Assembly (NCBI GenBank): GCA_008632985.1
Contig: QPGO01000275.1
Coordinates: 1 to 64,000, forward strand
Source: Psammoneis japonica
Taxonomy: Eukaryota
DNA length: 64,000 bases
Reading direction: 5' to 3'
Part shown: positions 1 to 45,269 of the stretch, one piece after another
How the letters are laid out: each line of letters starts with the position of its first letter
Numbering within the stretch: the first letter of the stretch is position 1
Position numbers and translations under genes: made by a program
Notes under the pieces: generated by a model
The model's input: the letters and a program-made list of their open reading frames with translations, nothing else
What the model was told of the DNA's origin: nothing
The model's database searches: none

Positions 1-1438
1 AAGGTCAACTTGAGTGCCGACTTGGAACAAGCATGTGACACATGGCTTGCCTTTGGGTTCCAGGCTAATTGTGCACACAACCCTGCAATGCAAATGTGCA
101 ATGTCAATGAGTGCTTCTTTGCACTGACAACAAAGGAGTTGTTTTGATCTCATTGTGTCCAACAACCTTGTCAACTGCCTTTCTCACATCCGCTTGACAT
201 GATGTTGCAGATCTTTTGATGCTTTGCATCTTTTTTCGATTTTTCACGCACAGGGCTCCCCCCGTCTCCATTCAGAATCATTGCCACAATTGTGACACCA
301 TGGCGGCCAAGAACAAATTCATCAAGAATGCACCATCGCCCTGTCCATTTGCTGTCATCCTCTTTCTGGTGCTGTGCTTTTGTGACATTCCCATTTCTGA
401 CAGAGTCTTTGCCGTCACTCATCACCTGCATGTCGTCCGGCAAAACAAGCCAACAAACCCAACAGAGGACTGCAATTTGAGCCCAATGAGGAAAGGGGAC
501 GGCACCAAGGATTCTTTTGACATTTGCATTGGTTGTTGTGCTGCAGTGGGGGTGCTGTGACCTTTGGGTCTTCTCATGTGTGCGGCCTGTCTGCAACACA
601 CGCAACAAGATCACAACTCAGCTGCAGCTGAAAAGGCAGCTGCTGCCACTGCAGCTCCGCATCTCTTTTTGTTGCTGTCTCAGATCACAATGGAACATGT
701 TGTTGGATGTTTAGATTGTCGTGGGTGCATTCAGTGCTTGGCGCCAATTGGCTTTGGTGCGCACCGGCAAGCAGCTTTGCTGCGATGGATGACAGCAGCC
801 CACAAACAGTTTTTGAAACATTGAAATGCAAAGGTGGTTCAACTCGGGTTGGTTCTGGCAGTCCTCAATGCCACAATGTGGACCCACAAAACATTTGTCT
901 TTCTGCTGCTTCACATGATTCCAAACTGCCTGGACCAGAAAAAGCACCCGGTCCCTTCTGCAGAATGGAAGAGAGAACTGTTTCCTCTTGTAAAGCCAGA
1001 CAAAACAGACTGGAGAAACATTGCCATCTCCATCCCATTTGTTGCATTCAAGTGGGCCCCGTGCAAGGCTTGGATCCAAGGCAAGCTCTTTCTTGAGATG
1101 ACACAATTTGCCCTGGGAAACTTGAGCCAAAGGTTGTTGCATTTGTCATCAACTTAGTGCTTCAAAAGAAGAGATCATTTCCAGATGATGGAGAAGGGTG
1201 GACTTGCTTTTCACAGTCTCTTTTCTTTGCTCTGGCACAAAATTGCAAGCCAAAAAGCATCGCCTCCAATTGACCGTCCTCACTTTGGGTGATTGTTGTT
1301 GTGTGGCACGGTGTGAGTCCATTGCATCCGTCTGTTGAATGCAACCAACACACATCATCATCATGTGGAACCAAGATGTCGTTCACATAAAAACCCAAAA
1401 ATGTCCCACAGCACAAAGAACGCATTGAGAACATTGCA

Positions 1439-2858
1439 ATGTCAATGAACAAGAAAAGAGAAAGGATGGAGCTTGTCAAAGTCCAGGAGGTTGAAGGCTT
1501 TGGGAATGCTGTTGTTGCCCAGACAGCTTTGATTCCAGGCACTTTGGGGCTGGAAGTCTTTCAAGAACAGGCTTTGATTGTCTTCCCTCCTCACAACGGC
1601 ACAGTCTCACCACTGTGGGGACAATTGAGCCAAATGCTGCATGAGCAAAGCTGGCCGGACTGTTTGCACTTTTTGGAGCAACCCAAGGACATCCCAGAAA
1701 AGGTTTTGTCCTTTTGTGTTGACATGAAATGTGCTGACGCTCGTCGAGTGCAAGAGTTTGTGTCTGAACACGTCGAGTCTCAGGAATGTGCCAAGCGCTT
1801 CACTCATCTTTTCACGGTGATCAAATTCAACACTGTGGCTGTTCAACCAGTCAATGCTGATGGCGGTGGGCCTGGAAGCTGCAAGGGGCACAGTCTCTTT
1901 GAAGTCACATGTCGAATGGCACACTCATGTCATCCCAACTGTGTCTGGTTTAGTTTGCAAGACGGTTGCTCTAAGATGGTGCAAGTGATTGCACCCATCC
2001 AGTCTGGAGAGATGCTTGCTGTCAACTGCCTTGAGCAGAAGTGCTTGGAAAAGCCCATGTTCCTCCATTGAGCCAAGCTAAAAAGCACTAAGAACTTTGA
2101 CTGCAGATGCGATGGATGCATGTCATTGACTGGAGATGACTCCCAGCACTTCTGCTGCCACAAAGCATTGTAAAGGGTGCCATCTGGTGCAACAAGTTGA
2201 CATTGATGATCCTCCAGATCTGACTGCTTGTGATGTGTGTGGTGAAACAGCACCTGATGCCTTTCAGGAATGGATGCTGGAAAATGAAGAAGAGGCAAGC
2301 CAAAAGATTGACTGTGTGGATCGGGTTGCTGACTTGGGCACACCCGCAGACATTGCACATTCCATCCGATCACTCAAGCCTCCATGTGAACATCATGGGG
2401 TTGCTCTCCCAACACACCGGGCACAGGTTGATCTCTGCTTGGAACTCAATCAACTTTCAAAGGCTGTCATGGCACAATGCAAGTGGAGCAACTGTTGTTT
2501 GCGCATCCACGGAGAAAATTGTCTTGACGAACAAACTGGATTTGGGTGCAAATGCATGGGTGACTTGCTGGTTCAAGATGAAGGCCAACAGGCTGCCCGG
2601 AATGCATGTCAAAAAGCAGTGCAGGCCCTTCAAGTTTCTCGGGGAGGATCCAACAAGCCGCACATGCAATGTGCCATGAAAATCAGTGCAGAAGCATCGC
2701 ATCACGTCTTTGCCAACAGAATTGTCGGCAAAGTGCGGTCTCTGTGGTGTCCGAGCGACAAAGAAGTGCAGTCGTTGCAGAAACACAGTGCATTGCAACA
2801 GGGATCCCCAGCCAGTTCATTGGAAGGTGCACAAGAAGTTCTGCACTGAGACATCTTG
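1439..2858 (+). pseudogene. SMYD-like SET-domain protein with C-terminal MYND zinc finger (stops/frameshifts)
   Basis: SET motif 'SLFEVTCRMAHSCHPNC...IQSGEMLAVNCL' and post-SET 'FDCRCDGC'. At ~2730-2858 'CGLCGVRATKKCSRCRNTVHCNRDPQPVHWKVHKKFC' is a zf-MYND, with Tyr positions now C/H. Confidence 0.8.
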
Positions 2859-3283
2859 ATCAATCAAGCCTCTCCTCCCCCATTTCCCAGGTTTTGCGAC
2901 ATTTCTTCATTCTTTCCCAAATCGTAAAAATTGTACAAACATTGTACAGGAGATTCAATCACCAACCAGTTTGGTCTCAATGCTGTTTTCAAAGTCTTTC
3001 TGGCACACCCGTGCTCACTCCAGGTCCTCGAGCTGCACAGCATTCTCCGCAGATTGATGACACCAAGAAAACGAAGCTTTCATTGCACTGTTGTGATGTT
3101 GCAGCTTCGATTGCATCAGCCCCATGATGTGTTCATGCATGCTAAAGATGTTCCCCATGGACTGTCACAAGAACACTTCCAAACGACGAGTCTCTCCCGC
3201 TGGAGGAACAACCTGTGATGCAGTTGCTTTGCCCACAGTTGCCCGATTGCAAAGGATCTTTGTCTGGTGTAAAGTCGTCCCAG

Positions 3284-4031
3284 TCACAGTGCACGGTCTC
3301 CTGTGGGACCATCAGCATTCTTCTGTTGTGATCTCGCAAAGATTGTCATCATTCTTTGTTCCTTCTCTGCTGACCGCTTCACACGATCAACCCACCATTG
3401 GGTCTTTTCCAACATTTCAGAATGGCTCAAGTGAGTTTCTGTCAGGAGCTGCATTGGAAGTGGCCACAAACAATGATGACCCAGCCAAGAAGGCAAAATC
3501 TTCCACATGGTTTGTCTCACCACAAATTCCAGTCGAAGCCACTTGGTCCGGGGCATGCCACAGTCAGGCAGTTCCTTGATGGCATGAGCACAAGGCAATC
3601 ATTCTGTGGCAAAGGTGGGCACTGCTTGACTCCAATCATCCTCAAACTGATCAAGACATCCAGCCAACATCTGGACATCCTGCAATGCCGAATTGCATCC
3701 TTGTCCCAGACTGGCTGACAAGACATGAGCGGCATCACCAAGCAACATGACGGTTCCATCTCAGACCTGCATGCAGCTGCATTTGACTGTTTGCAACATG
3801 GAAACGGGACATGATTGGAGACTCTCCGCTTCTTTGTCCGACATGAATCCTGCCAAGTGTGGTGACAGATCATTTGGACATTTCCTGGCAGCAGAAGCGT
3901 CATCCATTGCAGCAAAAGGATTGTCCTCTTTGGGGAACACAATGACACCATTGAGATGCTCCTTGTTGCGTCCACCGGGAGCCATCATCACAGTCTTTCT
4001 GTGGTGGCATCCAACTGTTGAGATGGTCCGA
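3284..4031 (-). pseudogene. C-terminal half of FAD-dependent monooxygenase (kynurenine 3-monooxygenase-like), split by the Copia insertion
   Basis: Reverse translation of ~3660-3760 gives 'V*DGTVMLLGDAAHVLSASLGQGCNSALQDV' (GD motif of flavoprotein monooxygenases); in-frame TGA. Confidence 0.8.
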
Positions 4032-4385
4032 TGTGACAAAAATGCATGCATCGGTCATGTCAAACCTGTGTGACCCTGCGCATGTGCATTTGTTAGAAGA
4101 TCTGAAGACAGAGCAAGAGTGCCAAACCCACACGTAAAGACCAGCACAGAATCTACAATGAGACATTTTGAAGAAACTCTGGACATTTTGAAGAGACTCT
4201 TTTGATTGTCATTTTCATTTTTACACTGGATTAGCTCACAATTTCTCTGACGCAGAAGTTGTCATGCACCTTTGCCATTTACAGCCGCTCCTTCTGAGAG
4301 TTCACATTTTGGTTGATTGTTGCTTTCCAGCTTTCAACCACTGATTGGCCGGCAAATCCTTGCAAGATTTGGGTTCAACCCCACA
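4032..4385 (+). repeat. 5' LTR
   Basis: Begins tgtgacaaaaatgcatgcatcggtcatgtcaaacc and ends gggttcaaccccaca; aligns to 9527-9904. Confidence 0.9.
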
Positions 4386-4455
4386 CGCTTCCTCTGCAAC
4401 CTGCTTCACAACTTGTCAATTTCAAGCCAGCTGTTGACTAAAACCAGTCCCCTGA

Positions 4456-7400
4456 TGATGGTCAACACCCACACTTCTGCTGCTGCTGTGACATCTCCTG
4501 GGACTGCTCAGACTTCTGCATCCGCTGGAGCAAATGTTGCTGCTGGCACTGCCACTCCAGCTCCTGTTGGAGCTCCTGCCCCAGCTGCAGCTCCTGCTCC
4601 TGTCTCTTCAGGCTCCACTGGTGACACCTGTTCCTCCTGGAGGTGGCAGAGGACACGGCCCTGGTGGTGGTGGCGTGCCTCCTGCTGCACCCACTGTGGG
4701 ACCCATCTTCACTTTGACCACAGGTCAACATCAACCCAATCAGTTCATTGACTGTGGAACTTCCCAGGGACTCAAGCTTTTGCACAACGTGATTCAACCA
4801 CTGCCGTGCGAGTTCAATGGTGACTCTGAAGGCTTGAACAAATTTGCAGAAATGCTGATTCAATGCGCCACTTCCTCAGGATGGTTCACAGGTGGTGGGA
4901 ACATCATTGACATTCCTGACAGCAATGGCACAAATGGAAACTTCATCATGAACTGTGGTTGACTCACCATGGAGGATGTCAGGAATCATGTGCAAGCCTG
5001 CATGAATGGTCAAAACAGGCAAGCTCAAAATGCTGTGCAGATGGCAGAGTGCATCTCTCAGTCTCTCACTCCAGAAGCACGAGACAAGATCATTGCCAAA
5101 CATGAGCAATGCACCATCAATGGCAACCTTGTCAGAACATTGCTCTTCAAGCTGCTCACCCAAAAGGCCATTGTTGACACTCGTTCTGCTGCCAACTTCT
5201 TCCGTGAGAATCTGTTGAACCTGGACACCTGCATGGCTGGCGTGAACTCCGATGTCAAGAAGTTCAACGAGTGTTTCAAACTCAATTGTGAGGGACTGCG
5301 AGCTCAAGGTGAGAACTTTGATGACCTCAACACATTCCTGTTCAAAGGACATGAAGCAGCAAGTGATGAGTTGTTCATCAAGCACACGGCTCCCCACAAG
5401 GACAATTGTGATGATGGCAAAAACTGCTCACCTGAGAGGATCATGACACTCGCGCTCAACAAGCACACCAACCTCAAGTGACATGATCAATGGGGAGCAC
5501 TGTCTCCTGCCAAAGAGAAGACAGTTGCACTCTCCACAGAGACAGCCACCATCAAGGACCACAATCTCAAGTTGACCAAATCTTTTCTCAATCTGGCAAG
5601 TGCATGAGTCCCAAGAAGAAAGAAGACAAGGACAAAGGCGGCAAGGAGATCAGAGACAAGAAGAAAGGAAAAGGGAAGCAGGGAGACTCTGACAACTCCT
5701 GGAAAAGAGTTCCACTGCAGGACTCTCACCCTGCCAAACTTGTGAATGGCAAGAAGCATCATTTCAAAACTCACGGCAATCGCAAGCACTGCTGGTGTCA
5801 ATGCCACACCGCATGGGTCGTTCACCTGCCAGATGACAATGGACCCAACAGTTGTAGGTTGAGAAAGTCACAAGAGTCAGGCAACAATTTGCACTCCTCA
5901 AAGAGAGTTTCATTTGCAAGTGCACTTGCTGCCATCCTTGACAACATCCAATCTGAGGAATGAATGTTCTTTGGGACCATCATGAGGGCTCTCTGCACAT
6001 GGACATGCTGCATGAAGATGGCGGCAACTCTGTTCCTTGGAACCCTCACCATGGCCTGGACAGCTGCAACAATGGCACCTCTGCTGGTGTCAATGATCCT
6101 GGTTGTCACATTTGGCCTTCCTCACAAAACATTCAAGAAAGTCATGATGCCGACAATGACGTTGGGTGAGTGGATCATTTCACAAATCCCAGCTGATGCA
6201 CAAATGTTGCGCAAACACTTGCCATCAAACAAAAGCATGTGTTGTCCGAGGTGCATGACTGCAAAAAGAACAGGTCACTTGACAAAAGTGGCTGAAAAAC
6301 AAGCAACCTGCAAAGTGACCTTTACACCGGCAGCCAATGCTTCTGTGGTCTTTGTTCCAAGGCATTTTAGCCAACCATGAAACCAACGCCACTTGCAACT
6401 TGAATTCTTTCATGATTGACATTGACAACCATGCCTCTTGCACTGTGTCAAACAATTGCAAGCACTTCATTGGTGAACTCACACCAGTCAGGATGAAAGT
6501 GAGAGGCACTGGAGGAGAGCTCCTAAAGGTTGAAGGGAGAGGAATGCTGGAATGGAAAATTGAGGATGAGAATGGCGAAATCCATGCTTTCGCCATTTGC
6601 AAAGCACTCTGTGTGCCAAACTTACCTGCATGTCTGTTCTGTCCTCAACAATGGAGCTCACAGGCAAACAATCACAAGCCTGAACCCTGTGGCACCATCT
6701 CCGTCAACCAAGAAGACTGGTGCCTGCTCATGTGAGACCAAGAGAAGTCACACCCATCAACCAACTTGAAAGTCCGACTCCTGGATTTGTCCCTCAGCTC
6801 AAAGGGAGGCCTGCAAAACAAAGATGCAAGGCAGTGACAGTGTTTGTGGATCACCACAGTGGACTCAGCTGCATCCACTTACAATGATCACTCATCTCTG
6901 AGGACACCCTGAAGGCTGAGAGAGCATTTGAAGCCTTTGCTCACCAACATCACATCTGAATCAAACACTGCCATGCCAACAATGGAAGATTTGCTGACAA
7001 CACATTCATTCAAGACGTTGAGAGAGTGGGACAGACGATTTCCCACTGTGGAGCAAATGCTTGTCACTGAAAAACGGATTCGCGACCTGCAAGAGCAAGC
7101 ACGCAAGCAATTGCTGCATGCAAAGGCAAGATGGCCATCAGCAATTGAATTGAAATTGTGGCCAAGTGCCTTGCATTGCACAAATGAAATCAGGAACTCC
7201 TCACCTGATCACACCAATGGTTCCTTGCTGATCAAGATGTTTGCTTCCATCAAGGCAGCACTGAAGATCAAGGCTCACCACACTTTTGGATGTCCAGTCC
7301 ATGCTCTGAACAATGGATTGCAAAGTGGAGGATGCATTACAAAGTGGAGCTCAAGAGCAAGACTTGGAATCAATCTTGGTCCATCACCAAGACACGCTGG

Positions 7401-9490
7401 TTTGGAGTCACCAGTCCTGAATTTGGAAACAGGCCTGATGTTGCCTCAATTTCATCTGCAATGCAACAACTTTTTTGAAACAGTCAGACCATCTGCTGGA
7501 AATCCTCCAACATTTTCCCAATGGCAGACCACAGCAGGCTTCAAGACACAAGCTGAGCCAAGTTGATTCAACACATTTTGGCAATCAGAAGAGTCAATGG
7601 AGCCCACAGCAGCTCAAACACCAAGACTGGAACCGGAACCTGCAATTCTGCAACAACATGCTCTTGCACAAGAAAACATGGGCAGCCAAGTGTGAGCAGA
7701 TGCGGTTGCAAATGATGACCAACAACTGCATGGCCGAAAGCCAGGAGCAACAACATGCTCAAGGTGTTGCATCGTGTGCTGCTCACCACAAAGAGCACTG
7801 TGACGCAATGCATGAGGGGGATTGTTGTCTCCAAGATGACATGGACCGATCCCCATCATTTGTGACTTGATCCAACCAAGACACCATGCACTTTGACCAA
7901 GCTGTGCATGCACCTGACCAAGATGAATTTACAATGGCAGCAGTCAAAGAGGTCAATGACCACATCAAGCACAAACACTTGAGATTGATTCCCAGAGATC
8001 AAGTTCCAGAGGGAGTCAAGGTCTTGCCTTCAGTTTGGTCCATGAAACACAAGTGAGACATCAAAACTCAAAAAGTCCACAAGTGGAAAGCAAGATTGAA
8101 TGCACACGGTGGAAAGCAGGAACATGCAATCAACTGCTTCAACACATGCCGCCCAGTTGTAAACTGGCACACTGCACGATTGATCCTCATCCTGTCCATC
8201 CTCAACAGATGGCACACACGCCAAGTCAACTTTGTCCTTGCCTCTCTGCATGCTGACATTGAGTGTGAGACATGCACATGGAATTGCCCAAAGGAATTGA
8301 GACAAAGTGTGGCAATGGCAAGACTCATGTGTTGCAACTGTTGAAGAACCTGCATGGACAGAAGCAAGCAGGACGAGTTTGGGGAGAACATCTCAAAAAA
8401 GGATTGCTCAGAATTGGATTCAAACAATCCAGTGTCAACAAATGCCTTTGCCACCGACACAATGTGCCATTTGTGCACTGTGTTGATGATGGCATTTTTG
8501 CTTCTCCTGACAAAGATGCCATGGACAAAGCAATTCTGGATGTCAAGAACAAAACCTTCGACATTGATGATCAAGGGAGCATTGAAGATCACCTTGGCAT
8601 CAACATTGAAATGCTTCCTGATGGTTGCACAAAACTTGCACAACCACATCTCAACCAGCAGTTGCTGCAAATGGCGAACTTGCCAAAACGAGCAGCCAAC
8701 AAATCCACTCCAGCTCCTTCTTCCAAGATGCCACATCAAAACAAGAACAACTTGTCATTTGAAGGGAGCTTCCATTGTTGAGCTGTGATTGGTGAGCTCA
8801 ACTTCCTTGAGAAGTGCACTCAACCCAACAACACTTGTGCGGCACATCAAGTCGCTTGGTTTTCTGAAGACCCAAAATGAGCGCACGGCAAAGCTGCACT
8901 GTGGCTTTGCAAGCACCTTTGCAACACTGCCCAAGAATGAATCACACTTGGTCCAATTGAGGACAAGTCATTGGAAGTTTATGTGGATGCCAACTTTGCA
9001 GGCAATTGGAACAAGCTAACTGCAACTGTGGCACAAGCACCACCGAGTCAAGAACAGGTCATGTCATTGCATTTGCAGGATGTCCAATTGCATGGTCATC
9101 CAAGTTGCAAACTCAAGTGGCACCAAGTGTGGCTGAAGCTGAGCTCATCACGCTTTTGGAAAGTCTTCGAAGTGCCACCCCAATTGTGAACATTCTGAAT
9201 GAGATCAAGGGAAACGGTCATCCTGTCATCTCAGACATGCCCAAGGTCCATTGCAAGGCATTTGAGGACAATTCTGGTGCTCTCAAGACAGCATGTTTGC
9301 CCAAGATGTGACCACGGACCAAACATTTCAACAACATGCTTCATCATTTCAAGGATCACGTTCACTGGGGAATTGCTTCAATCTGTCCTGTGGACACATG
9401 ATGTCATCAGGGAGACATGTTCACAAAGCCTCTGCCACAGAATGACTTTCTCAGACACAGAAAGTTTCTTCTCTGCTTGTGGATTGTCAG
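4456..9490 (+). pseudogene. Copia gag-pol (protease, integrase, RT, RNase H), many stops/frameshifts
   Basis: PR 'IDIDNHASCTVSN'; IN 'VFVDHHSGLS...KHCHANNGRFAD...EKRIRDLQEQARKQLLHAKARWP'; RT 'KWKARLNAHGGKQ', 'LLKNLHGQKQAGRVW', 'FVHCVDDGIF'; RH 'VYVDANFAGNW', 'RTGHVIAFAGCPIAWSSKLQT', 'FEDNSGA'. Confidence 0.92.
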
Positions 9491-9526
9491 ATGCGTCACT
9501 GTTCCACCCAACACTGTTGAAGGGAG

Positions 9527-9904
9527 TGTGACTAAAACACATGCATCGGTCATGTCAAACCTGCATGACCCTGCATGTGTGCATTTCTGAGAAGATCTGA
9601 AGACAGAGCAAGAGTGCTGAACCCACATGTAAAGACCAGCACAGAATCAGCAATGAGACATTTTGAAGAAACTCTGGACATTTCAAAGAGACTCTTTTAA
9701 ATGCAATTCAAAATGCTCACAAAGGATCACTTTCATTTTTACATTGGATTAGCTCACAGTTTCTCCAACGCAGAAGGTGTCATGCACCTTTGCCATTTCA
9801 CAGCTGCTCCTTCCAAGAGTTCACATTTTGGTTGATTGTTGCTTTGCAGCTTTTAACCGCTAATTGGCTGGCAAAACCTTGCAAGATTTGGGTTCAATCA
9901 GACA
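9527..9904 (+). repeat. 3' LTR
   Basis: Begins tgtgactaaaacacatgcatcggtcatgtcaaacc and ends gggttcaatcagaca; ~24 bp longer than the 5' LTR. Confidence 0.9.
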
Positions 9905-9909
9905 TCCAA

Positions 9910-10546
9910 CAAGAGCAGATTGACACCTTCATTGCAACTTCTTTTTGCACAATGCAGAGACTTGCAATTGTTTGCAACTTCCTCAGTTTTGCACCACTCC
10001 AATTCCTCTTGTCCCAACACCATCAGCAGCAACAAGATGATCAAATGATTCTTGTTGTGTGACCTCTTTGTTGCTGCTGTCCTTTGCCGTGCACACCCTC
10101 ACAACCTTTTTGTCTAAATCCAGTTGTTCTGCAGCGCTGTCAAAGTGTGGTTGCACAGAATTCTTTGGAGCATGTTTGATCTGAGAAAGCTCCTCCAATG
10201 ACATCAGCGGAATGCCATTCCTGTCGATGCTCAGAAACAAGGGTCGTGCACTTTTGATTGGCTTCTTTGGTTTGCTGTGCAGTGCTGCACTGATGGCCCA
10301 AATGCCTCGTTTTTCCAATGCAGCCTCAAGGTTGGGAATTTGTTGAATGGCAGCCAGTCCTTGACGCTGCTGCAAGGCAATGGGACATGTCCGCACCTCT
10401 TCTGGAGAGAGCTCTTGGGGATCAAGATGCTTCTCGTGAACACACACCTTGCATCCGGGGCAACGGACCAAGCAATGCACCAGCAACAATGACGTCAGAC
10501 CACCGCCAACAATGACAATCTTTTTTGAAGATGCAACAAGGGACAC
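9910..10546 (-). pseudogene. N-terminal half of FAD-dependent monooxygenase (KMO-like)
   Basis: 'KKIVIVGGGLTSLLL' Rossmann motif, 'VHEKHLDP', 'SIDRN', 'FDHLVAADG' DG motif; same strand as the C-terminal half on the other side of the Copia. Confidence 0.82.
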
Positions 10547-10754
10547 AGTTCTTCTTCTTGCTCTTGTCTTGCAGGATTTTTGAGCTTTTCTACCAGTGTG
10601 ACTGTGCTGTTGCTGCAGCTGCGATCACAGAAATTTCTGCAGCACTCTGAAAGTTGCAATTGTTAAAACCACAGATTGCCATCCTGAGCTGGTGTTGCCT
10701 GACCTCTTTTGGACAAAGAAATGTAGTGAATCGAAGCTAGAAGCAGCGATGCTG

Positions 10755-12375
10755 GGCCAGTGCAACAAAAAAATCTGCCCTCAGTTCTGCCCTGCAGAGA
10801 GCAGCACTCATCCTGCGGGGAAGAAGACCCAGCTGCAGCAATCAGGGCTGAACCTGCATGCCAGCAATCAACCTGTGCAAACACACTTGAGGAGTTGGAA
10901 GCCAAAAGAAAAACCTTCCAAGAAGCTCAAAAAATGCCGCACCATCACCTGCACCATGGCTTTTGAGTGCCCGTGGTTCCACTCAGTGACCCTTGCAGCA
11001 AAGGCATGAACACCATTGTTGACTCATGTGATCATGAAAAAATGATGCTTGCACTGGAGTTTTAGCCAACCCTTGTCTTTTTGGTGTTTGATCACTTTTT
11101 CTGCAATGGAGGAAGCATGCTGCGCCACTCAACTCAATGATTGGAGGACAAAGGTGAGAATGCCATCACTTGCCAAAGGAAGCATTAGAAATCTAGTGGT
11201 TGTGTTTGCACTCATTGCAAAGCCCGTCTTTTGGGCATTTGGTGCTTTTTTCTGTGATGGCAGAGTTTTTCTCTCACTGTTGCTCTTGTTTTGTGGTCAC
11301 TCACAGGTCTGCAAGGCACCCATTGCAGTGACGGCATGAACACCTTCATGGACCAACATGATCATGAAAAAATGCTTGCAGTGGATTTCTTGTTGCTCCT
11401 CACCTCTTGGTTGTTTGGTGACTTTTGCTCTGAGTGAGAACACAAACAATGCTGCCATGTCTGACACAGCAGCACTCACAATCAAGCTGGGTGCTTGGAC
11501 TGCAAAAGGTGAGAACAACAGAGTTTGACAACAAGAGTGTTGAAAATGTGATGGCCAAGTTTGTTTGTTTTGCACATGGCATCTTTTGGGTGTTTGGTGC
11601 TTTTCAAGTGTGGCACAGCATTTTCCTCACTGTCTCTCCTGTCTCACCATCACCCACAGGTCCACTTGGCACCCATTGCATCCAAAGCACCAAGGTGATT
11701 GTGGAACAAATGGTTGTCAAAACACACATCTTAAGCCAAGGATGTGAAAAAGCACAGAGAGATCAGCGGTGCAACCCTTGGTCATGCCTTCTGCACTGTG
11801 GAGAAGCTTGTTTTCTTGTCAAGCTGGTGGAAGTGCAATGAGGTGCTGATTGTTCTTTGGGCTGACAAAATTGTTTGGCAGCACTGTTTGAACATGAAAC
11901 TCACAACAGTGATCTCAAACGGGTGCTTTGGAGCTTGTCAACATTGAAAGTGGTGCAAGTCATCCACCTGATTTCCCCAGCACAAGGAGAGCAAGTGTTT
12001 CTGCTGCACTCAGGACACCTGTGGGTGCTGCTTGCTGTGCCGCCAGATGTGCTGTTGGTGTTGGCTCATTTGCTGGGTTGCATGCAGTGATGCTCATGGT
12101 TGAGATGCCGCATTGAGATGAGTGGAACTTTCAGCTTTTTTTTCATGTGCCATTGCACCCTACCTTGCCAAGGACAGATGATTGCATCGCGCAAAAGGGG
12201 TGTGCAGGGTGGAATTTTTGGCTTTGGAAATTCCACCATGCCTTCTACCTGGGTGGAATGAACAGCAGATGTGGTGGAATTTTTGAGAAGATGCGGCTGC
12301 GGCATTGACAGTTTCACATGCACAAATTCCATTTTTCAGCAGGAAAATGCCACTTGGGTAGAATTTTGGTGACGG
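10755..12375 (-). mobile_element. Internally deleted Crypton-related unit, head-to-tail with the full element
   Basis: 10770-10990 matches 12390-12570; 12011-12115 matches 15679-15784; 12261-12366 matches 15922-16028. Confidence 0.65.
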
Positions 12376-12574
12376 GCCAACACACAACCAAAAACATCTA
12401 CCCTCAGTTCTGCCCTGCAGAGAGCAGCACTCATCCCAGGGGGAAGAAGACCATGCTGCAGCAATCAGCACTGAACCTGCGCAACAGTGGTCAACCTGCG
12501 TAAACCATGCAAGAAGTTGAAGCCAAAAAAACAACTGGCCTTTGAACGCCCACAGTTCCACTCAGTGCTCATTG

Positions 12575-13460
12575 CAGCAAAGGCACGAATGCCATTGTGG
12601 ACCAATGTGGCAGTGATGCAAATGATGTTTTTGTTGGATTTGTTGCTGACCCTTGCCTTTTGGGTGTTTGATGACTTTGACAGGTGGGAGGAAGCACAAA
12701 GCACCGCCGCGTTGGCAATGGGGCATTGATGTGTCCACCCGGCACTCGGGCAACAAATGTGAGAACTCCATTGTGGGCTGATGCAGCAGTGATGCAAATG
12801 ATGTTTTTGTTTCATTTGTTGCTTGACCTCATCTCTTGGGTGTTTGATGACTTTGACTGGGTGGAGGGAAGCACGAAGAGCCACCGCATTGGCAACAGTG
12901 GGGTTCACAAGTCCACCCAGTGCTTTGACAGCAAAGGTGAGAATGCCATTGTTGATGAATGGGAGTGTGACAACAATGATGCTTGTGTTGGAGCTTTTGA
13001 CAAACCGTTTTTCTTGGGTGTTTGATGACTTTGACCAGGTGGGGGGAAGCACAAAGTGCCACCACGTTGCCAATGGTGGGGTTGACAAGTCCACCCAGCA
13101 CTCAGACAGCAAAGGTGAGAACACCATCATGGACCAACAGGAATGTGACAACAATGATGCTTGTGTCAGATGTTTGCTGAGCCTTTTCTCTTGGCTGTTT
13201 GATGACTTTGACAAGGAGATGGGCAGCCACAGCACCACCGCATTGCCAACAGTGGTGTTGACAAGTCCACCCAGCACTCAGAGAGCAAAGGTGAGAATGC
13301 CATCAGGGGCCATTGGGAATGTGACAACAATGATGCTTGTGTCAGATTTTTGCTTGACCTTGTCTCTTGTGTGTTTGATGACTTTTGCCAGGAGATGGGA
13401 AGTGCGCAGCACCGCCGCATTGTCGACAACAGCATTGACAAGTCCACCCGGGTGGTGCCG
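12575..13460. repeat. Tandem array, ~175-180 bp unit, ~5 copies, downstream of the Crypton ORF
   Basis: Recurring gcaaaggtgagaatgcc...tgtttgatgactttgac...ttgacaagtccacccagcactc at ~12576, 12751, 12931, 13109, 13284; degenerate relatives at ~10995-11600. Confidence 0.85.
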
Positions 13461-13564
13461 CATTGGCACTCGGAGCATGGGTGCCAAGGCCACCACAGAC
13501 TGTGAAGTTGTAAAAAAAGGTGAGAACAAAATTTGCATTTTGCAATTTTTGTCACAATGGATTT

Positions 13565-15770
13565 GTTGAGTCCTCAACTCCAGGTGCCCACCTTGTTGCT
13601 TGTCCTTTTGCATTGCTCGCAGGATGTTGGTTGTGGATTCACCCTCACAATGCACAGAGCACACTTTGTCAATTGCAACCTCGGCAAGCATCCCTGATGC
13701 AACCACAGATTGAATCTGGTCCCAGAATGTTTTTCTCTTGGAGAATGTGTGCTTGACTTGACCTCGCTTGGCAGGAGCAAACAAATGCACAGCTTTCATT
13801 CCACCAACACCAGCCATCCACTCATCCCACAGAATGTGGAATGTCTTTGGGCCTCGTGTCAATTGGGCATTGTTGTCCCTCTGTCCTCTTTCCTCAGCAC
13901 CTTGACCGTCTTGAGCTTGCATCTGTTGTTGTCTTGGGCATGCGATGTGACCAGGCTGGCTGCTGACTCTGTTGAGGGACGAGTGCACTTTTGTTGGAAG
14001 CCCTGTTTTGTGTCCCTTTGCAGGGCAGTCAAGTCATTCTTCATGGTGCACTGAGTCTGTTGCACTTCATTCAGCCCTGCAAGAAGGCAGGCTGCCATTT
14101 GTCCATCTCAGGCTTGTCTGTCACTCGATGACTCAGTGCTGCAATTTGCCATGTTGTCACCATTGGTCTGTTTCAGCTTCATCAATGTGCAAGGTGTCTT
14201 CAACATTGCACAGAATGAGCTGCACCTTTGATGCTGGATTTTCATTGTTGCCAAGCAATCCTTGAACATCATCAGCATGGGCATCCTTGATTCTCTGCAT
14301 GACACCCACAGTGACACTGTCACACATTTCTTCATCACAGCTGTGCCAAGTGCTTCTGCCATGCTGGATGGAAAATGTGCAGATGTGTTTGGCACCACAT
14401 GCTGCAACATCCACTCCTTGGTCATGCAGCAGCCCCACTTCAACCAATTGATTGGACCACCAATGCAGAGCAGCCCAGCAACCTTGGCATCAGGCCAAGG
14501 CAGGTCCACATTTGTGCACTTGTCCTGCTGCTTCTTTGACTGTTTCCACCTTGCACAACTGTTCATTTCATCCTTGTTTGCCCCTTTTGATTGAGCCAAA
14601 GCAGTTGAAAGTTTCCTTGTAGAGTGAGTGCCAAGCAATTCCACAACCAACCATTCAAATTGATCTGAGTTCAGATTTTTCTTCAAAGCTGAGCAAGCTT
14701 TGCGGTTTGCTGCCTTGGGATTGTGGGTGCCAAAATTGAACATGAGCTCTCTGTTCCCACCATGCCTTGCCATTGATGTCTCAAGGTGAAGCCCCAATCC
14801 AAGCAACACACAATGCAGCAGATGGTCTGCACCAAAAAGAACTTGGAGTTGGCACTGTTGTTCCTCCTGAGCATTCTTTGACCAATTCAGGTGCATTCTA
14901 AGAGCAAAAGGGAATTGTTGGGTCACTGGTGGCCTTGCGCTCTGAGCTTTGCATGTGTCATCAAGTCATGCAATCAAGTTGTGAGTGACCTTCAAAAGAC
15001 CAGGAATGCCAAATTTGCATCAAGGTCAGAGGAGCCATCCAACAAATGCAAGATTTGTTCATGCTCTTCCTTCCCAAGCCTGCCACCTCCATTTTGGTTG
15101 TTGCATTTGTCAAGTCATTCACAACCACTGATTGTGTTGGGTTTCCCCATCCAACTTGATCATTCCATGCCATGTGCTTGTTTGGCATGAAGCATGACAT
15201 CGCCTTTTTGCAAAACATCAGTGAGTTTGCTTGTCCACTGAGCAGCTTGTCATTTGGCCCAGGATTGGGCTTTCCAACAGCCTTGACTCCAAACCACTCA
15301 CCAATCTCCTTTGGTGCAATTTTTGTCAACACATTGTTTGGAAACAGGTGCGGCAACTGGTGTGTGGTTTTGTCCTGATGTGACATGAATTCTGCAAGGA
15401 CATTGTGATGTTGCAGGATTGAGTCCGGGACGTTGATGCAATGAGCCAGGCTTGTCAAGGCAAACTCAGGCCTGTCTTCTGAAGCTCCTTTTTCTTTTTG
15501 CCTTCTTTTGTTTTGTGTTGGTGATGGAGGCAGTGGCATTGGAGGTGGTGTCGGAGGTGGCAGCGCTGGAGTGAGCAGCGCATTGCGTGCATCCTTGTTC
15601 ATTTTTAGTCTGGGCAAAGAACAAGGTGCAAGTCGGCCGTCTGCTTTCTACAAGGAGCACGGATGTTTTGGTTGCACTCAGGACACCTGTGGGCACTGCT
15701 TGCCACACCACCAAACATGCAGTTGGCATTGGCACATCTGCCGGGATTGTTTGTGTCATTGATGCTCATG
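13565..15770 (-). pseudogene. Crypton tyrosine recombinase with C-terminal GCR1_C-like domain
   Basis: 'KKAMSCFMPNKHMAWNDQVGWGNPTQS', 'LNWSKNAQEE', 'LGTHSTRK' (HxxR), 'ARWK...QDKCTNVDLPWPDAKVA', C-terminal 'PKTFHILWDEWMAGVGGMKA...FSKRKTFWD...AIDKV'; Cys-rich N-terminus. Confidence 0.82.
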
Positions 15771-16229
15771 GTTGAGACCGCATTGGCAGAACTTTGAGAG
15801 CTCTTTATGTTGACATGAGACATGAGACATGAACGGAAGAGCAAGATCATGCAAAAACAAGCACGCAGGGTAGAAGTTTTGCTTCCAAGAATTCTGCCCT
15901 CCCTTCCACCTCAGCAGAAAAAACAGAGAATGTGTGGTGGAATTTTTGCAAAGAACGGTGACTGCAGTGACAGTTTTGCATGTGTCAACTCCACTTTCCA
16001 GTTGAAAAATGCTGCTTGGGTGGAATTTCAGAGGTGATGGCAGAGTGTTGCAGTGTCATTGGTCAGCAGTTGCCAGGTTGAAGCTTCGCGCAAATTTGTG
16101 CATGATTCAGGTGCATGTGCTCCACACCTTGATGTGGGCATCACGCCATTTAGTTTGTTCATTCATTTGCATTCATTTGATGCAATTTGCACTTTTTGGT
16201 TTTGCCAAGTTGGGCACTCTCTCTAGCCA

Positions 16230-17320
16230 GATTTAGTTCTCATAGACAGGAATCTTGTCCACAACATCTGCAATGCCTGCAACATTGACTCATGTGTTCG
16301 ACAGGCCAATGTTCTTGCACAATGCCATGTGCAGTTTGCAAACAGACTTGGGGAAAGTGGCTGAGTTCTGCTCTCTGCATCAGAGACATTGCTCATCAGC
16401 ATCTTTTGACAGATCAGTTTCTGCATCTGCTCATGTGGCTGTGCATGTGGTTGCTGTCTTCAATTGCAGAGGTGTGTTGGGATTGACAATGCAAGGTGCA
16501 GTGGGATGTCAAGAAACCATTCATTGTCATTCCCTTTCTTTTGCACCTGAGCTGTCAGAATGGGATGATCTTGCCAGCCTGGCACCACAAGTTTTGGAGC
16601 CTGTTGTGGTGCAAATGGTTGGATCCGATCTCATGTGCTCCTTTTGCACCTGGCAGTTGCCTTCACTTGGTGGAGATGCCCGGCTTTGTGAGTGTCATGG
16701 AGCACGTTCAAGCATTTCTTAGACACTGGCAGACACTTCTGAGCCATCAAACGCTTGAGACAAGTGGCAACCGAAGGTTGAACACCCATTGTTGCAAATG
16801 TTGATCTCTTCAAATCTTCTTCCAACTGCAACCCTTTTCCTTCATGGACAGGACATTTGTGCTCATCATCAGCAAGAGCCACTTGAAACCCAAAGAATGC
16901 AAGGAGCTGTTCGTGCACAATGTTGTTGGTTTCAGGATTTGGCACCCATGGCATGGAGTCCAAGTGCTTGTTGCCTGTTGGGCAATTCACTCCTTGATCC
17001 AGTGTGAACCTGATGTGAGCCTTTTCTTCTTTTTTGGCTGAAGCTCCAGCTTGAGGATTTGTGTGAGTGGCATCTTCTGTTGCTGCGCTTTCCCACAGCA
17101 GCAAACAACTTGAAGCAAACAAGAGCTGTGCCTTCATCTCCTCCTCACTCAAGGGCACTGTGGCTGGCAAAGTGATCACATGTTGTGATGCAAGTTCAGC
17201 TGATCCCTTTTGTGTTGTGTCAACAATTGCTCCATTTGCTGTTGCCACATCTCCTTCAGTCGTGGGTGTCAACGACAATGAAATTTTGAATTTTCTGTGC
17301 CAAAACAGGAATTTTGACAA
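16230..17320 (-). pseudogene. Unknown protein (paralog at ~37500-38550)
   Basis: 229-aa Tyr-free ORF 16631-17320 with a recognisable paralogous translation in copy B; no family recognised. Confidence 0.4.
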
Positions 17321-17611
17321 ATTTTGATGTTTTTGAGATCTTTTTGAAAGATCGTTTCTTTGTCACAGACAGTCGGGGGGATTGAGTCATGCCTTGAGTC
17401 CCACCACTTCTTTTCACTTCATTGTCACAATGCAATGACCCTCAAAAGGCAACTTCACCTTTCATTCCTGCTGAGCAGGTTCCTTCTGTTCAATGGAATT
17501 CCCAGCCATCACAAAGTGCAGTGGTCACTTGGAGAGAAACAGCCATCAGATCTTTTCAGGGCATCTCACTGCCTGGCTGTCATGAAGAACATCTTAGCTG
17601 ACCCCAACACC

Positions 17612-18530
17612 ATGAAGAAAGTTGGAGCCTTTGTTGTTGCTGCTGCTCTGGCAGTCTTTTACACTGCCACCATGTGGAACAATCCTCAGGGTGGTGTTGA
17701 CAAAGCATCCTTGTGCAGTTTCTACTCCAGTCAACAATGCCAAAACCTGCAGCAGGACACTGATCATGAGGATGAGTGGGGGCCTCTTGTTGGACACTGG
17801 AAAGGCACTCTAGGTCATGTGCCACCCAGTTTAGAGTTGTGCCTCATCATTCATGTCTTGCCCGTTTTTGGACAAGTCTTTTGAGTGCAGCCTTGATCAG
17901 GGAGGTCAGTTCATCCCCACCATGGCAATGTGGTTCAATCCAAACACCAATGAGACTCATTTCTTTGTTGACACCATCAATGGTGTGTGCACTGGAAAGC
18001 TTGATGATGTGACTGGAACATGATGTGGGAACATGGAAGAGACATGGCAGAAGCATGTTGCCAGATTGTGATTGTTGCAATTTGCCTGACAAGGAGATGA
18101 GCATTCCTCATGAGATTCAGTTTGTAGCAGAAAAAGCAGTGACAGGAGATCCAGACACAGTTGTTGGAATGGAAGTTTGTTCTACCTGGATGATGATGAC
18201 TGCAACCAAGATGCACCATGTCCTCAACTGTTGGTTGTTGTTCAAATGGAAAAGTCAGATGACAATGTTGTGGAACCAAAGCTGTTTCTTCCTGATTAGA
18301 GTTGCCTGCCTGTGCTAATTCAGTCCTTTTTGATTGATGTTGATGACAAGGTCAAAATCATGCATGATGGCAGTGACTCAATTTTTCAAAGCACACTGGA
18401 TGAAAAGTCAATGACTGGCACTGTCAACTGTGACAGCGCAGATGCAGCATTGGCCTTGACCTTGTTGTGGAGCAATGATCATCCTGAGCATGTGTTGGTG
18501 GAACAGTTTCCAAAGGAAATTGTCAACTGA
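17612..18530 (+). pseudogene. Unknown secreted/membrane-anchored protein (paralogs at ~38833-39760 and ~45434-46320)
   Basis: 'MKKVGAFVVAAALAVFY' signal/TM-like start in all three copies; conserved acidic segments 'DDKVKIMHDGSDSIFQxTLDEK'. Confidence 0.5.
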
Positions 18531-19369
18531 GCAACGACAATCTCGTCACACTGTGCTGTGAACGGAGGTCAATCTTGCCACTGCATGGAATCACACTGCA
18601 AGTGGAGCTCACAACCTTGACTGGCGGATGTGTTTAGACCAGCGGGCTTGACAAACTAAGAACAAAGTCGAGAAATGCTCAAAGGACTGTTGCTGATTGG
18701 CTGATGAAGAAGCCAACATGCTGGATGCCATGCACAACCCTCACATCATTTTCTCATCTGAAAACCCATGTGCACAAAGCCTCTTGTGCCAGCAAAGAAA
18801 CACATGAGGATGCCCTTGCGGCTTGTGCACAACTTGAAGACACCTGGGAATGGAGACAAAAGGATTTTCTTGTGGTGGATGGATGCAGTTGAGCAAAAAC
18901 AATTGGGGCCCTGGCAAGTGCAAAGATGACTCAAACAGAAGGTTTTCATGTGTGCTGGCAAGATGTGGTGGGATGACAAACAAAACAGCACCAATTGGTG
19001 AGAGCAACAATGTCTGGCATGCATGTGAAGGCAGACAACTCAAAGTTTGCTGTTTGTTTGAAACAAAGCCAAAGCAATGGTTTCACCCTCCTGGAACAAA
19101 CCAATCATGTTGCTTTCTTTCTCTTCCGGCCAAAAAAAATCCTGCAAAACCTGCAAACTTCAGGACAGGACATTTTGACAAAAAAATGTCAAGGGACACT
19201 CAGTGACTTTTCTTGCATTTTTGATTCAAATTGACTGGCAAGTTTGGAATCATGCAGAACCCACACATGAATTTGTGGTGTGTTCAACCCAACTGTGTGC
19301 CTCCTGAGCTGAAACCGACCACGTCACAAGATGCGCTAAAAACAACAAACACAAAAAATTAATTGCGCC

Positions 19370-20690
19370 ATGTCGTCTTCAAGTGACGGCAATGCCAATG
19401 GCACCAACCATGTGCCACCAACACAAGACAGTCATGCTCATGGCATGCCTTGTGATGAGGACATGGGGCTTGTGCCAACCGCTCACCTCTTTGATCAAAG
19501 GCTGTTCTTGTCCCTCCATGTTTGTGTTTGCAAAGAACTGTTGACAGAAGAAAAGCTGCTTGTGGGTGCAAGCATCATGTCAACGAAGGTGTCCAGCCTC
19601 AGAGCTCTTTTCCACAAGTGCAAGCATGTTTGCAATGACAACCCCACACCCAAAAACCTTTCCACCTCAGGCAATTCTGGTGACTTAAAGAAACATCTGA
19701 TGACGTGGTTCTGCATCTTCTGGCAGGAAGGAGCATGCATTGAAAAGCGCCCCTTCAGCACTTCCAAGAACTGGAGCCAGGCAGAAGATTCACATGTTGT
19801 TGAGACACTTGGCAACCCTTCCTTCCAGAAACCCCTCCAGCACCTTCACCAAAAGGCTCCACATGTTGCACTGGACAAGGGCAACCCACCCCTTGTGGCT
19901 GTGTGCCAACAGTTCACAGTGGTTCTGTGCAACAATTTTGACAAGTGCAAACCAACATGCAGGTTTCAAGATGACCCACTGCTGAAGGTGTTTGATCCCA
20001 ATGACAAGACAATTGCTTCCCATGCTCCAGATGTCATCAAATTGAGGGTTGGCCAGCTTGGAAGCAGACCAACAGTGGTGCACAAGCTTGGCATGAAAAG
20101 TGGCTCGGACCCAGAAGGTTTTGAAAATGCACTTGATCTGACAGATCCACTGGACCAATCAACTCTCTGTCGGTGGAAGGCAATTGACTGCCATGGTGAT
20201 TCATCTGTTCTCAAGAAGTTTGTGCACCTTCTTCCAGCTGGATCAGGTGTGGATGCCTTGGATCCCAGCGCCGTCAAACACAGCCTGAAAGCTGCCAACT
20301 CCATCTTGCGCAGCATGTGCAAGGGTGACAGCTCCTCCAGCAAGCCCAAAGTGTGTCTGAAAAAATCCTCAAGGTGGTCAATGAGTTGAAAAGTGACATG
20401 ATGGACGAGGTCAACAAAGAGAACATGTTTTTCTTGCAGCAGAATCAAGACCGTGCCCAGGACAAGGTGGAGTGACTGGGCAACAAGATTCCGGCCATGA
20501 TGCATGAAAAGGTTGGCAACTTCAAAAAGCACAAGAGAAAGATCAAGCAGTGCAAAAAAGACTGCAGTGAGCACAAGGAGCTCAAGAAAGGGGTGGCAAA
20601 AGCATGAAAAGTTGAGTTGGACAGCAACATTGACCATGACAACACTTCTTTTCTTCTGTCTGAGTCATCCAGCAGCAGCAACAATGAGGT
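19370..20690 (+). pseudogene. Unknown protein relic (339-aa ORF plus frameshifted charged tail)
   Basis: Protein-like composition with zero Tyr and His/Cys excess; no family recognised. Confidence 0.4.
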
Positions 20691-20879
20691 GAGTGCCTTG
20701 TGCATTGTCCATTTTTGCAATGCCAATGATTTGTGCCAACTCAGTGTTTGTTGTCAACACAAGCGCCATCAACACCATGGAAGGAACAAGTCTGAGAAAG
20801 CATCTGCTGGGAATGAAACAAAACCAAAATTCTGTCTTTAAAGTGCTGCTGCACTTCCACCCCGCAACTCCGGCAACAA

Positions 20880-26800: not shown

Positions 26801-26860
26801 TCAAGGTGGAAGGGTTTCTACTCATGATTGGGCCATGCTCCTCCAAAGAGAAGACTGGGG
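20880..26860 (-). pseudogene. LINE ORF2 (endonuclease, reverse transcriptase, RNase H)
   Basis: Motifs above spread over frameshifted ORFs 26352-26846, 25620-26048, 24650-25522, 24360-25004, 23702-24085, 22272-23237, 21378-22265, 20741-21514. Confidence 0.85.
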
Positions 26861-27024
26861 CTTAAAGCAAGGAAGTGGAGCAAAGCCATGTTGAAAGGAG
26901 AAAGGCTGATGCTTGCCAGCACGTCGGAATGCTCGAGCAAGGGACAGAGGAGATGTGTGCTGATGAATGTCAGGAGGGCGCCCAATGGTTTGTGGAGATG
27001 GAGGCGGCGAGATCCATCTCTGCG

Positions 27025-28770: not shown

Positions 28771-29249
28771 GGCATTGAAAACACGCAGGTAAATTCAATG
28801 CTGACAAATGCAGAAAAGTGGCATCTGCTGGGAACAACTCCAATGGCTGCAGTGGAAGGAATGAGTCTGCAGAGCTGGAGGAAGATGGCCAGTCTGATGG
28901 CAAGAGCAATTCACACAATGAGCCAGTGCAAGACAAGGCGCAACACCATGATTTCAATTTCTTGGATTTGGGTTCTTGGTTGTCAAACATGTGCTGCAAC
29001 TTTGGCTTTTGTGGGCGTTGCTTACATTGTGCTGGTTGCAAAGCTCACCTTGACAAAAATGACCCCACTTCCCTGACTTGTGGGTGCGATGATTGCATTC
29101 ACGGGGCACAACTTTGTGCACTTGCATTGTGTCCTGATGTGGACTACACCACCACAGACTGTGACATTCCAGTTGAACATTGTTCAGAGAACAACAGCAT
29201 TCTAATGGCACAACTTTTATTTCTGTGGCTCCAGCACTTTTGAGTCATC

Positions 29250-30900: not shown

Positions 30901-31189
30901 CCATGACCACAGCAGATTGGTTCTCCAGTTGTGGTTCAATGCCATCAACGACAATGACGCCACATTTCTGCTGCTGCGAGGTGGGCAAACAATGTCAGCA
31001 GTTCTCAATGAATCTGAGATTTGTCACCAAATTGGACACTGCTCATGACAAACCCTTGGGGATGGACCTTTCTTTAAGCCAACACTGGACCTGAGGATGC
31101 AAGTTGTGGTTGCATCCCATGGGCTTGTCTGTGGAAAGGAGTGGCTCACCCTGTTGGTGCTGACCTGGTCCAGTGTTGACTGAAGGAAG

Positions 31190-31830
31190 ATGCAATTCAT
31201 CATCATCAACTCAGAGGTCTCTCAAAATGTTGTGCAAGTGAAACATTCATTGAATCACCAAGAAACACCTGCGCAATGGAAAAGGCAAGGGCCACCAAAA
31301 AATCCCAAACTTCTGGCAGACATTGCCCCACATGCGCTCAATGCAATTGTGGCAGCCTTTGTTCAGATGACAGTTGAAGGCATCCTTGCATGGCTCACGA
31401 TCTGCAAGCATGGTGCCTGTCCATGGACCTGCCTGATTTGCGCCACAGCCGCAAGCCTCATCCAAAGAGATGTGGCAGTGCCTCTCTGTGCCACGACACT
31501 TGACTTGGATTTCATTCTCCCATCTTCTGCCCATGGCGCACAACTCCCAAGCCATCCTGTCATGAGCATTTCCTGTGGCATGGACATCCAAGACTTGGCA
31601 CTTTGGGACAGCATCTGCAATTGCTTGGATGCAAATTGCTGGAAAACCCTTTTGATTGATGCGCAACATTGGGTTCTTGCATTTGTCGCTACACCGGGCA
31701 TGTGAATTCTCACAGCATGTCCATCCAGTGCTCCCACATGACCCAAGCGCAGTTCAGGAAGATTGTTCTTGTTTGTTGAGACTTGATTTGCCATGAATCA
31801 AAGCTCTGGCTCTGTCGTGGGAAAACACAC
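31190..31830 (-). pseudogene. PIF/Harbinger DDE transposase fragment
   Basis: 'HVGALDGHAVRIHMP', 'INQKGFPAICIQAIADA', 'GNAHDRMAW', 'LDEAC...PWTG...KDAFNCHL...IERMWG...FGIFWWPL' (DDE_Tnp_4-type motifs with Y->C/H). Confidence 0.82.
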
Positions 31831-45130: not shown

Positions 45131-45269
45131 CAGGGCACAATTGTGGGCTTGTCTGGACCACCAATCACATGGCTTTTGAGTCTTGTGCTGGCTGCTTTCT
45201 TGGGCAGTGCAGCTTCAACAACGTCCACCTCTCACAACTGACTTTGACCCAAATCTTCATGATCCTCAG

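Follow-up and report, generated by a model that had tools for sequence, protein, structure and literature searches.

A 62-kb repeat block in Psammoneis japonica has lost nearly all TpA dinucleotides, with a flank-dependent bias among the survivors

The closest described counterpart of the DNA analysed here comes from Bigelowiella natans, a chlorarachniophyte. According to the main text of a recent preprint, the A>G and T>C changes that appeared de novo in mutation-accumulation lines of this species lay exclusively at TpA, within integrated DNA of giant viruses and virophages (Mettrop et al., bioRxiv 10.64898/2026.01.13.699255). Their rate was about 1e-7 to 1e-6 for each site and generation, and only some lines showed them. 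The de novo TpA mutations number 231, and the nucleocytoplasmic large DNA virus region holds roughly 6,169 TpAs. The same text reports 124 clusters of 1-kb windows in the B. natans genome with TpA depletion and CpA+TpG enrichment, an over-representation of reverse transcriptase and transposase domains in the TpA-depleted genes, and an ADAT2 homologue as the candidate enzyme (bioRxiv 10.64898/2026.01.13.699255). That main text describes no preference beyond the TpA dinucleotide; its supplements may hold context data. A literature search for a TpA-specific process returned this preprint as the sole relevant description. Here we analyse a 64,000-nt stretch of Psammoneis japonica DNA (GenBank assembly GCA_008632985.1, contig QPGO01000275.1, positions 1 to 64,000 of the forward strand; "the window" throughout), in which a block of decayed repeats at 1-62000 has lost nearly all TpA, and we describe the bases that flank the TpAs still present.

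Other systems share part of this signature. Fungal repeat-induced point mutation (RIP) turns C into T, chiefly at CpA, so that new TpA is formed. ADAR enzymes act on RNA with a loose neighbour preference, and the tRNA target of TadA is U-A-C-G. For Tad2-Tad3 (ADAT2/ADAT3) of Neurospora crassa, the portion of the source drawn on here gives T/U directly 5′ of the edited A at 96.7% of mRNA editing sites, and a P(TA) 22-233 times that of other dinucleotides (PMC13431901). Its substrates are described there as RNA hairpins, with TTAGGA, carrying G at +1, as the favoured motif (PMC13431901). Amphioxus ADAT2 acting on DNA in E. coli is reported, in the part of the paper used, to favour GAA for A and TCG for C (PMC10354150).

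The window is eukaryotic and repeat-rich, with a G+C content of 48%. Over its whole length the observed/expected ratio (o/e) of TpA is 0.09, an 11-fold depletion, while CpA stands at 1.72, TpG at 1.74, ApA and TpT each at 1.21 and CpG at 0.35. The loss extends through the entire block: every 1-kb bin up to 62 kb has a TpA o/e of 0.00-0.26. At a boundary near 62.0 kb the ratio climbs from at most 0.12 to at least 0.30, with values of 0.30-0.38 at 62.0-63.0 kb and 0.34-0.90 past 63.0 kb. When the B. natans thresholds are applied as understood from the preprint's text (Rho_TpA at most 0.43 together with Rho_CpA+TpG at least 1.52 per 1-kb window), 55 of the 64 1-kb windows pass both, and the longest run of passing windows is 29.

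As in the B. natans process described in the preprint's main text, transitions at TpA give TpG or CpA, and the targets are foreign or mobile. Unlike the active nucleocytoplasmic large DNA virus region of that genome, for which the text gives a Rho_TpA of 0.45, the window is depleted far more deeply (o/e 0.09 over 62 kb). The pattern also resembles RIP, as a dinucleotide-specific transition hypermutation at the DNA level that destroys repeated elements where they lie and can be recognised by its dinucleotide signature, but it is the mirror image of RIP, since the window loses TpA and gains CpA and TpG. ADAR hyper-editing of double-stranded RNA derived from repeats likewise produces A>G changes clustered in repeats. 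Unlike the outcome of such editing, however, the window keeps AA untouched (o/e 1.21), carries changes on both DNA strands and shows them in non-transcribed repeats too.

The direction of change was read from tyrosine codons (TAY, where Y is a pyrimidine and R a purine). Intact copia polyproteins from public collections were aligned to the decayed pol of a Ty1/copia-type retrotransposon in the block (Table 1). At the 27 codons with Tyr in at least 70% of full-length copia homologues, the window has Cys at 11, His at 10, Tyr at 1 and other residues at 5. A 50% consensus of all 27 homologues defines 33 Tyr sites, which now read Cys at 14, His at 11 and Tyr at 1. Other residue types in this pol are retained at 45-92% (for example, Lys at 32/40 and Asn at 24/27), and CpG-type changes are present in its Arg and Asp codons. 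At conserved Tyr codons TAY has thus become TGY or CAY, and TA is therefore the ancestral state. A second retroelement, a long open reading frame (ORF) remnant on the reverse strand (20969-26732), has 19 consensus-Tyr codons that are now Phe (6), Cys (6), Tyr (3), His (1) or other residues (3). Its 6 Cys against 1 His on the sense strand represent a possible strand bias, in very small numbers.

Comparison of repeat copies within the block shows that the process is specific for TpA: A/G differences are found at 58% of remaining TA sites, compared with 7-10% of AA, CA and GA sites. The initial annotation of this DNA, made by eye, had argued in the same sense against a plain WA signature (W, A or T); equal A>G rates at AA and TA, which it would have taken as a refutation, are not seen. 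The leading difference between copies is a dinucleotide that reads TG in one and CA in its counterpart, at 83 sites of a dispersed 2.9-kb repeat pair and at 172 sites over five repeat alignments. The two long terminal repeats (LTRs) of the copia element also differ from each other at TG/CA and TA/TG sites. Since copies and LTRs differ in this way, the hits came after insertion or duplication and independently in each copy, and they fell on both DNA strands. Along a copy, TG and CA follow each other at random: the 83 discordant sites form 42 runs, where 41.8 are expected, and no strand-coordinated bursts were seen in this runs test. In a tandem array of 183-bp units, five of the six columns that still hold TA also contain both TG and CA in other units; TA is therefore ancestral in these columns, and residual TpAs are real survivors. 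Judged by sequence alone, the attacked base may be the A of TAY or the paired T of RTA.

The survivors are biased by their flanks. Positions 1-10600, to which the initial annotation was attached, are a sample of the block and hold 42 TpAs: CTAA 11, TTAC 8, GTAA 7, TTAG 7, two each of CTAC, GTAC and TTAA, and one each of ATAA, GTAG and TTAT, with CTAG, ATAT, ATAC and GTAT all at zero. CTAA and TTAG are common, as had been noted by eye, but CTAG, named beside them, is absent from this sample and TTAA is rare, while GTAA and TTAC, which had been mentioned merely as occasional, account for 15/42 and are as common as any in the group supposed to lead. By class the sample holds 20 YTAR, 11 YTAY, 9 RTAR and 2 RTAY sites (chi2 15.7, p 0.0013); its only RTAY sites are the GTAC tetranucleotides at 2934 and 2945, correctly picked out as exceptions. 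Over 1-62000, the 344 residual TpAs comprise 170 YTAR, 87 RTAR, 73 YTAY and 14 RTAY (chi2 144, p 4e-31), which bears out the claim that RTAY-type sites are nearly gone. The rare contexts in the full block are ATAT (0), ATAC (2), GTAT (3), CTAT (3), ATAG (5) and GTAC (9).

Counted by 3′ neighbour, the residual TpAs of the block rise from TAT (25) through TAC (62) and TAG (110) to TAA (147), and the 5′ side mirrors this order (ATA 25, GTA 76, CTA 112, TTA 131). The class bias is present in 7/7 sub-blocks, with 0-8 RTAY sites per block. It is absent from the flank at 62001-64000 (15 YTAR, 15 RTAR, 19 YTAY and 15 RTAY; p 0.97), a 2-kb stretch that is the sole internal control and the sole source of the ancestral NTAN spectrum. 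All 16 NTAN contexts are depleted in the block, with o/e 0.00-0.21 and CTAA as the top survivor at 0.21. Uniform depletion across contexts, an outcome that the initial annotation had named as a refutation, is rejected (deviance 238.9 on 15 degrees of freedom). YTAR sites had been described as kept and as most of what remains; they are about half of the survivors and form the slowest class, every one of their contexts being at o/e 0.21 or below. The preference had also been called less than absolute on the example of a TTAA matched by a TCAA; this pair exists, with its coordinates at 52328 and 51928 rather than 52321 and 51921.

The size of the flank effect was estimated with a half-site decay model, in which the 3′ neighbour of the A on each strand determines how fast that A reacts. 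This additive model lowers the deviance from 238.9 to 39.0 and gives rates, relative to a 3′ A at 1, of 3.45 for T (bootstrap 95% 2.96-3.98), 1.88 for C (1.42-2.36) and 1.20 for G (0.96-1.50). Cumulative hazards were also computed with the flanks grouped as purine or pyrimidine and the ancestral o/e set to 0.8, giving a -ln survival of 1.60 for YTAR, 2.26 for RTAR, 2.45 for YTAY and 4.10 for RTAY; if such an ancestral value holds, about 80% of YTAR sites are gone. With the process so close to saturation, a rate difference of about 2.5-fold between RTAY and YTAR suffices for the 12-fold survivor bias. The preference is a kinetic bias of about 2- to 3.5-fold and not a motif, and TAY had been overstated as one. 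The bias towards a 3′ pyrimidine stands, at this modest size and with the proviso that a model with equal flanks fits the Tyr codons as well. Among 3′ neighbours T has more effect than C, so the target is not just the UAC found in TadA substrates.

Strand choice, unlike the survivor counts alone, offers a view of which flank matters. At 32 Tyr-derived codons of known TA ancestry, TG is observed 20 times, where 19.9 are expected if the +1 base alone acts, 12.1 if the -2 base alone acts and 16 if the two flanks act symmetrically. The corresponding log-likelihoods are -21.7, -27.3 and -22.2, and an effect of the -2 base alone is rejected at these codons. A preference of at least 10-fold is excluded there (P 0.005), and one of 5-fold is borderline (P 0.08). 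The products YTGY+RCAR number 4030 against 3059 for YCAY+RTGR (77 and 78 in the final 2 kb), an asymmetry that leans towards the +1 base. The proposal that A->G change favours TAY holds for the direction of the flank effect, with which strand choice agrees.

We assign a probability of roughly 70% to the reading that positions 1-62000 are a graveyard of transposons and repeats in which TpA-specific A:T>G:C decay has run near to completion, at a moderately flank-dependent rate that is fastest with a 3′ pyrimidine. The transition process would act on chromosomal DNA, each TpA ending as TpG or CpA according to which A:T pair changed, and the residual TpAs would be the slow tail of a decay with a neighbour-dependent rate, not a protected motif. 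Change would be fastest where the changed A precedes a pyrimidine (T > C) and slowest before a purine; equivalently, the preference would be for a purine 5′ of the changed T. RTAY would vanish first and YTAR last because both strands of TpA are targets. The agent may be an adenine deaminase of nucleic acids with a requirement for T on the 5′ side of its target, comparable to the U33-A34 context in which TadA/ADAT2 work, as the B. natans preprint proposes, and the process may serve as a defence against foreign or repeated DNA. A T (U) directly 5′ of the changed A is shared with Tad2-Tad3 and TadA/ADAT, as far as the sources consulted describe their contexts, and the same pattern would arise if the paired T were attacked. 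Unlike the contexts those sources give for Tad2-Tad3 (TTAGGA) and amphioxus ADAT2 (GAA), the window has a +1 order of T > C > G >= A, with TTAG and CTAA as the best survivors.

Several observations weigh against this decay reading or its parts. The contexts of ADAT-type enzymes, in the portions of the papers cited, differ from that of the window, TTAGGA being favoured in fungi and TTAG among the slowest here, and the tie to the B. natans process would be one of signature only. The YTAR share shows no clear rise with depletion depth (0.45, 0.56 and 0.51 in three bins). The additive model misfits (deviance 39.0 on 12 degrees of freedom, p 1e-4), with TTAT at 19 and ATAA at 18 against 10 fitted and TTAA at 39 against 56 fitted, and its rate ratios depend on single-exposure decay, on an assumed ancestral TpA o/e of 0.6-1.0 and on base-composition expectations. 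As for the flank that acts, the Tyr codons do not separate the 3′-only model from the equal-flank model, and the excess of TG at codons with a pyrimidine at N1 (13 against 6 CA) is on its own not significant (p 0.17). The product asymmetry has a poorly known baseline, its control being only 2 kb long. Repeat copies show no effect of the flanks on strand choice (discordant sites R_R 40, Y_Y 32, Y_R 28 and R_Y 40), nor does the 183-bp array (Y_Y columns TG 24/CA 22, R_R columns TG 14/CA 9); the repeat counts are diluted by CpG-derived sites, which two or three copies do not suffice to separate, and units of the array lack independence from one another.

A tentative alternative is that a tetranucleotide is read in the duplex with two-fold symmetry, RTAY being best and YTAR worst, with the two flanks counting equally and the strand changed at random. 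The symmetric site could be recognised by a duplex-binding enzyme, perhaps a dimeric one, or could reflect how the TpA step is shaped locally or how stable it is; it would not amount to a single-strand TAY preference. The two flanks combine in a roughly multiplicative way in survival, as such a site would have it: -ln survival runs from 1.60 through 2.26-2.45 to 4.10, with 2.56 as the geometric mean of the lowest and highest values. Flank class acts without strand determinism in the repeat copies, outcomes show no strand-coordinated runs, and the fit to the Tyr codons is nearly equal (-22.2 against -21.7). The product asymmetry and the Y-TA-Y Tyr codons, with their 13 TG against 6 CA, lean instead to a dominant 3′ neighbour, and the repeat counts that speak for symmetry are those diluted by CpG-derived TG/CA sites. 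Because RTAY is fastest and YTAR slowest, the strands are hit about equally and strand-coordinated runs are lacking, the reader of such a site might be a natural activity that edits adenine (or thymine) in duplex DNA, unlike the single-strand, tRNA-loop-type ADAT2 put forward so far, a proposal that we consider doubtful. It is unlikely that the bias comes from outside the process, that is, from ancestral composition, from new TpAs formed by C>T/G>A at CA/TG, or from protection by modification or protein. A YTAR share that barely varies with depletion depth is what an equilibrium predicts, the misfit of the additive decay model is significant, and the ancestral spectrum comes from the 2-kb flank only. 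Back-mutation, however, predicts TpAs where NCAN+NTGN precursors are commonest, yet ATAA and ATAT, with 1075 and 787 precursors, are seen 18 and 0 times, and CTAA, with 774, is seen 56 times; on these precursor counts and the mixed array columns, a back-mutation origin of the residual TpAs was rejected. The recurrence of the bias in seven blocks of unrelated elements and the equal classes of the flank also stand against an origin outside the process.

That the changes were made in RNA, through ADAR-like or Tad2/Tad3-like editing of transcripts later fixed by reverse transcription, is very improbable. Two affected elements are retroelements, and fungal Tad2-Tad3 mRNA editing, in the text consulted, has its own strong demand for T before A (PMC13431901). 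Instead of being limited to the sense strand of a retroelement, however, the changes in the copia element gave Cys (TG) at 14 and His (CA) at 11 Tyr codons, so that both strands were changed, and with sense-strand outcomes so nearly equal, RNA-level editing of this element ahead of reverse transcription is ruled out. TG/CA divergence arose in LTRs, tandem arrays and dispersed copies once these had been inserted or duplicated, the entire 62 kb is affected, non-coding parts included, and in B. natans, by the preprint's main text, the changes arose in integrated viral DNA during culture (bioRxiv 10.64898/2026.01.13.699255). An artefact of sequencing or assembly, such as systematic miscalls at modified TpA, is scarcely credible, even though the TpA loss is extreme and sharply bounded. 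Contigs of Logan run X1, which may be the assembly's own sample, are identical to the window at 54674-55092, 55270-57604, 58786-59360 and 62877-64000. If both strands were miscalled, CpG would be generated as well, but it is depleted; the copies differ as expected of independent mutation, and coding remnants show an ordered Tyr>Cys/His change. Contigs of runs X1 and X2 matched at 90% likeness were identical or paralogous and gave no usable allelic differences among the 40/514 differing places listed.

Mobile-type remnants in the window include the copia-type LTR element, the long retroelement ORF and GCR1_C and Ulp1 domains, and an ankyrin piece is also recognisable by Pfam; much of the block is without recognisable origin. 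Pfam matches were obtained for 6/144 ORFs of at least 120 aa, and most long ORFs, in all frames, are not counted as genes because TAA and TAG stops have been lost. The copia pol matches RVT_2 (E 2.3e-12) and Pol_BBD in Pfam, and its intact homologues P0003, P0013 and P0019 align by tblastn with 50-62% identity over 6081-9494. The LTR pair has 84% identity by BLAST and 90% over 345 aligned positions. For the reverse-strand retroelement ORF, phmmer with 21381-22271(-) found 1818 relatives at E <= 0.001, and tblastn with the homologues P0029 and P0037 (1560-1934 aa) covers the whole remnant; a homology search with 24363-25004(-) among longer proteins gave no match at E <= 0.001.

Table 1 Coordinates of the features discussed
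Feature	Coordinates	Strand	Basis and remarks
Block of decayed repeats, TpA almost wholly changed to TpG/CpA	1..62000	.	TA o/e 0.00-0.26 per 1-kb bin, CA and TG each about 1.7
GTAC pair at 2934 and 2945	2934..2948	.	Sole RTAY sites in 1-10600
Decayed Ty1/copia-type LTR retrotransposon	4032..9897	+	LTRs 4032-4378 and 9527-9897; pol remnants 6081-9494
Dispersed repeat copy 1	16223..19126	+	85% identity to copy 2 over 2929 positions
Long retroelement ORF remnant, RNase H-like part 21381-22271	20969..26732	-	phmmer, tblastn
Tandem array, units of about 183 bp	29093..30946	+	Source of per-column TA/TG/CA counts
Dispersed repeat copy 2	37494..40361	+	Repeat alignment
Dispersed repeat copy 3, partial	45284-46546		
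Near-normal flank with 179-bp tandem array (62477-63013) and Ulp1-like ORF	62001..64000	.	TA o/e 0.34-0.57, NTAN classes
Ulp1-like ORF	63167-64000	-	Peptidase_C48 E 3e-7

CpG follows a course of its own along the block. Its o/e takes two states, 0.05-0.3 in 1-21k, 29-51k and 55-57k and 0.5-0.83 in 21-29k, 51-55k and 57-62k, while TpA is low throughout 1-62000; CpG decay and TpA loss are therefore separate processes with different domains. In the reverse-strand retroelement ORF, for example, CpG is kept (o/e 0.53-0.83) and TA mostly lost (0.08-0.21). A GCR1_C domain at 13281-14033(-) (E 5.9e-6) adjoins and partly overlaps a 176-bp tandem array at 12575-13449; Crypton-type elements often carry GCR1_C. 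The ORF at 1391-2068(+) has a weak SET-domain match (E 0.0017; 19.2 bits, under the cut-off of 22.4) and may, on its sequence, be a hypermutated host-like gene or one borne by a transposable element. Logan word depth reaches 31,040 at 51338-54672, compared with about 33 in single-copy parts, so this segment belongs to a very high-copy repeat family in the source genome; it also contains many rearranged joints. One contig from run X2 passes directly from 63081 to 63179, omitting 97 nt where the Ulp1-like ORF has its edge, which may represent a spliced transcript if X2 is RNA. A single N occurs at 47698.

A TpA-directed process is already known, and the window is a new, extreme example of it; the context ranking is a useful incremental addition. 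As a general caution, near saturation a survivor spectrum greatly magnifies a modest kinetic preference. TpA-directed hypermutation is a very recently reported (2026) eukaryotic process that resembles genome defence, and the window represents its end state, about 97% of the expected TpA having gone from 62 kb. It supplies a quantitative ranking of all 16 contexts, which the main text of the B. natans preprint lacks, and adds evidence for independent hits on both strands after insertion. Were the duplex-site reading true, this ranking could be the fingerprint by which the enzyme is identified. More broadly, a context fingerprint is needed for in vitro tests of candidate deaminases and could flag the same process in other genomes.

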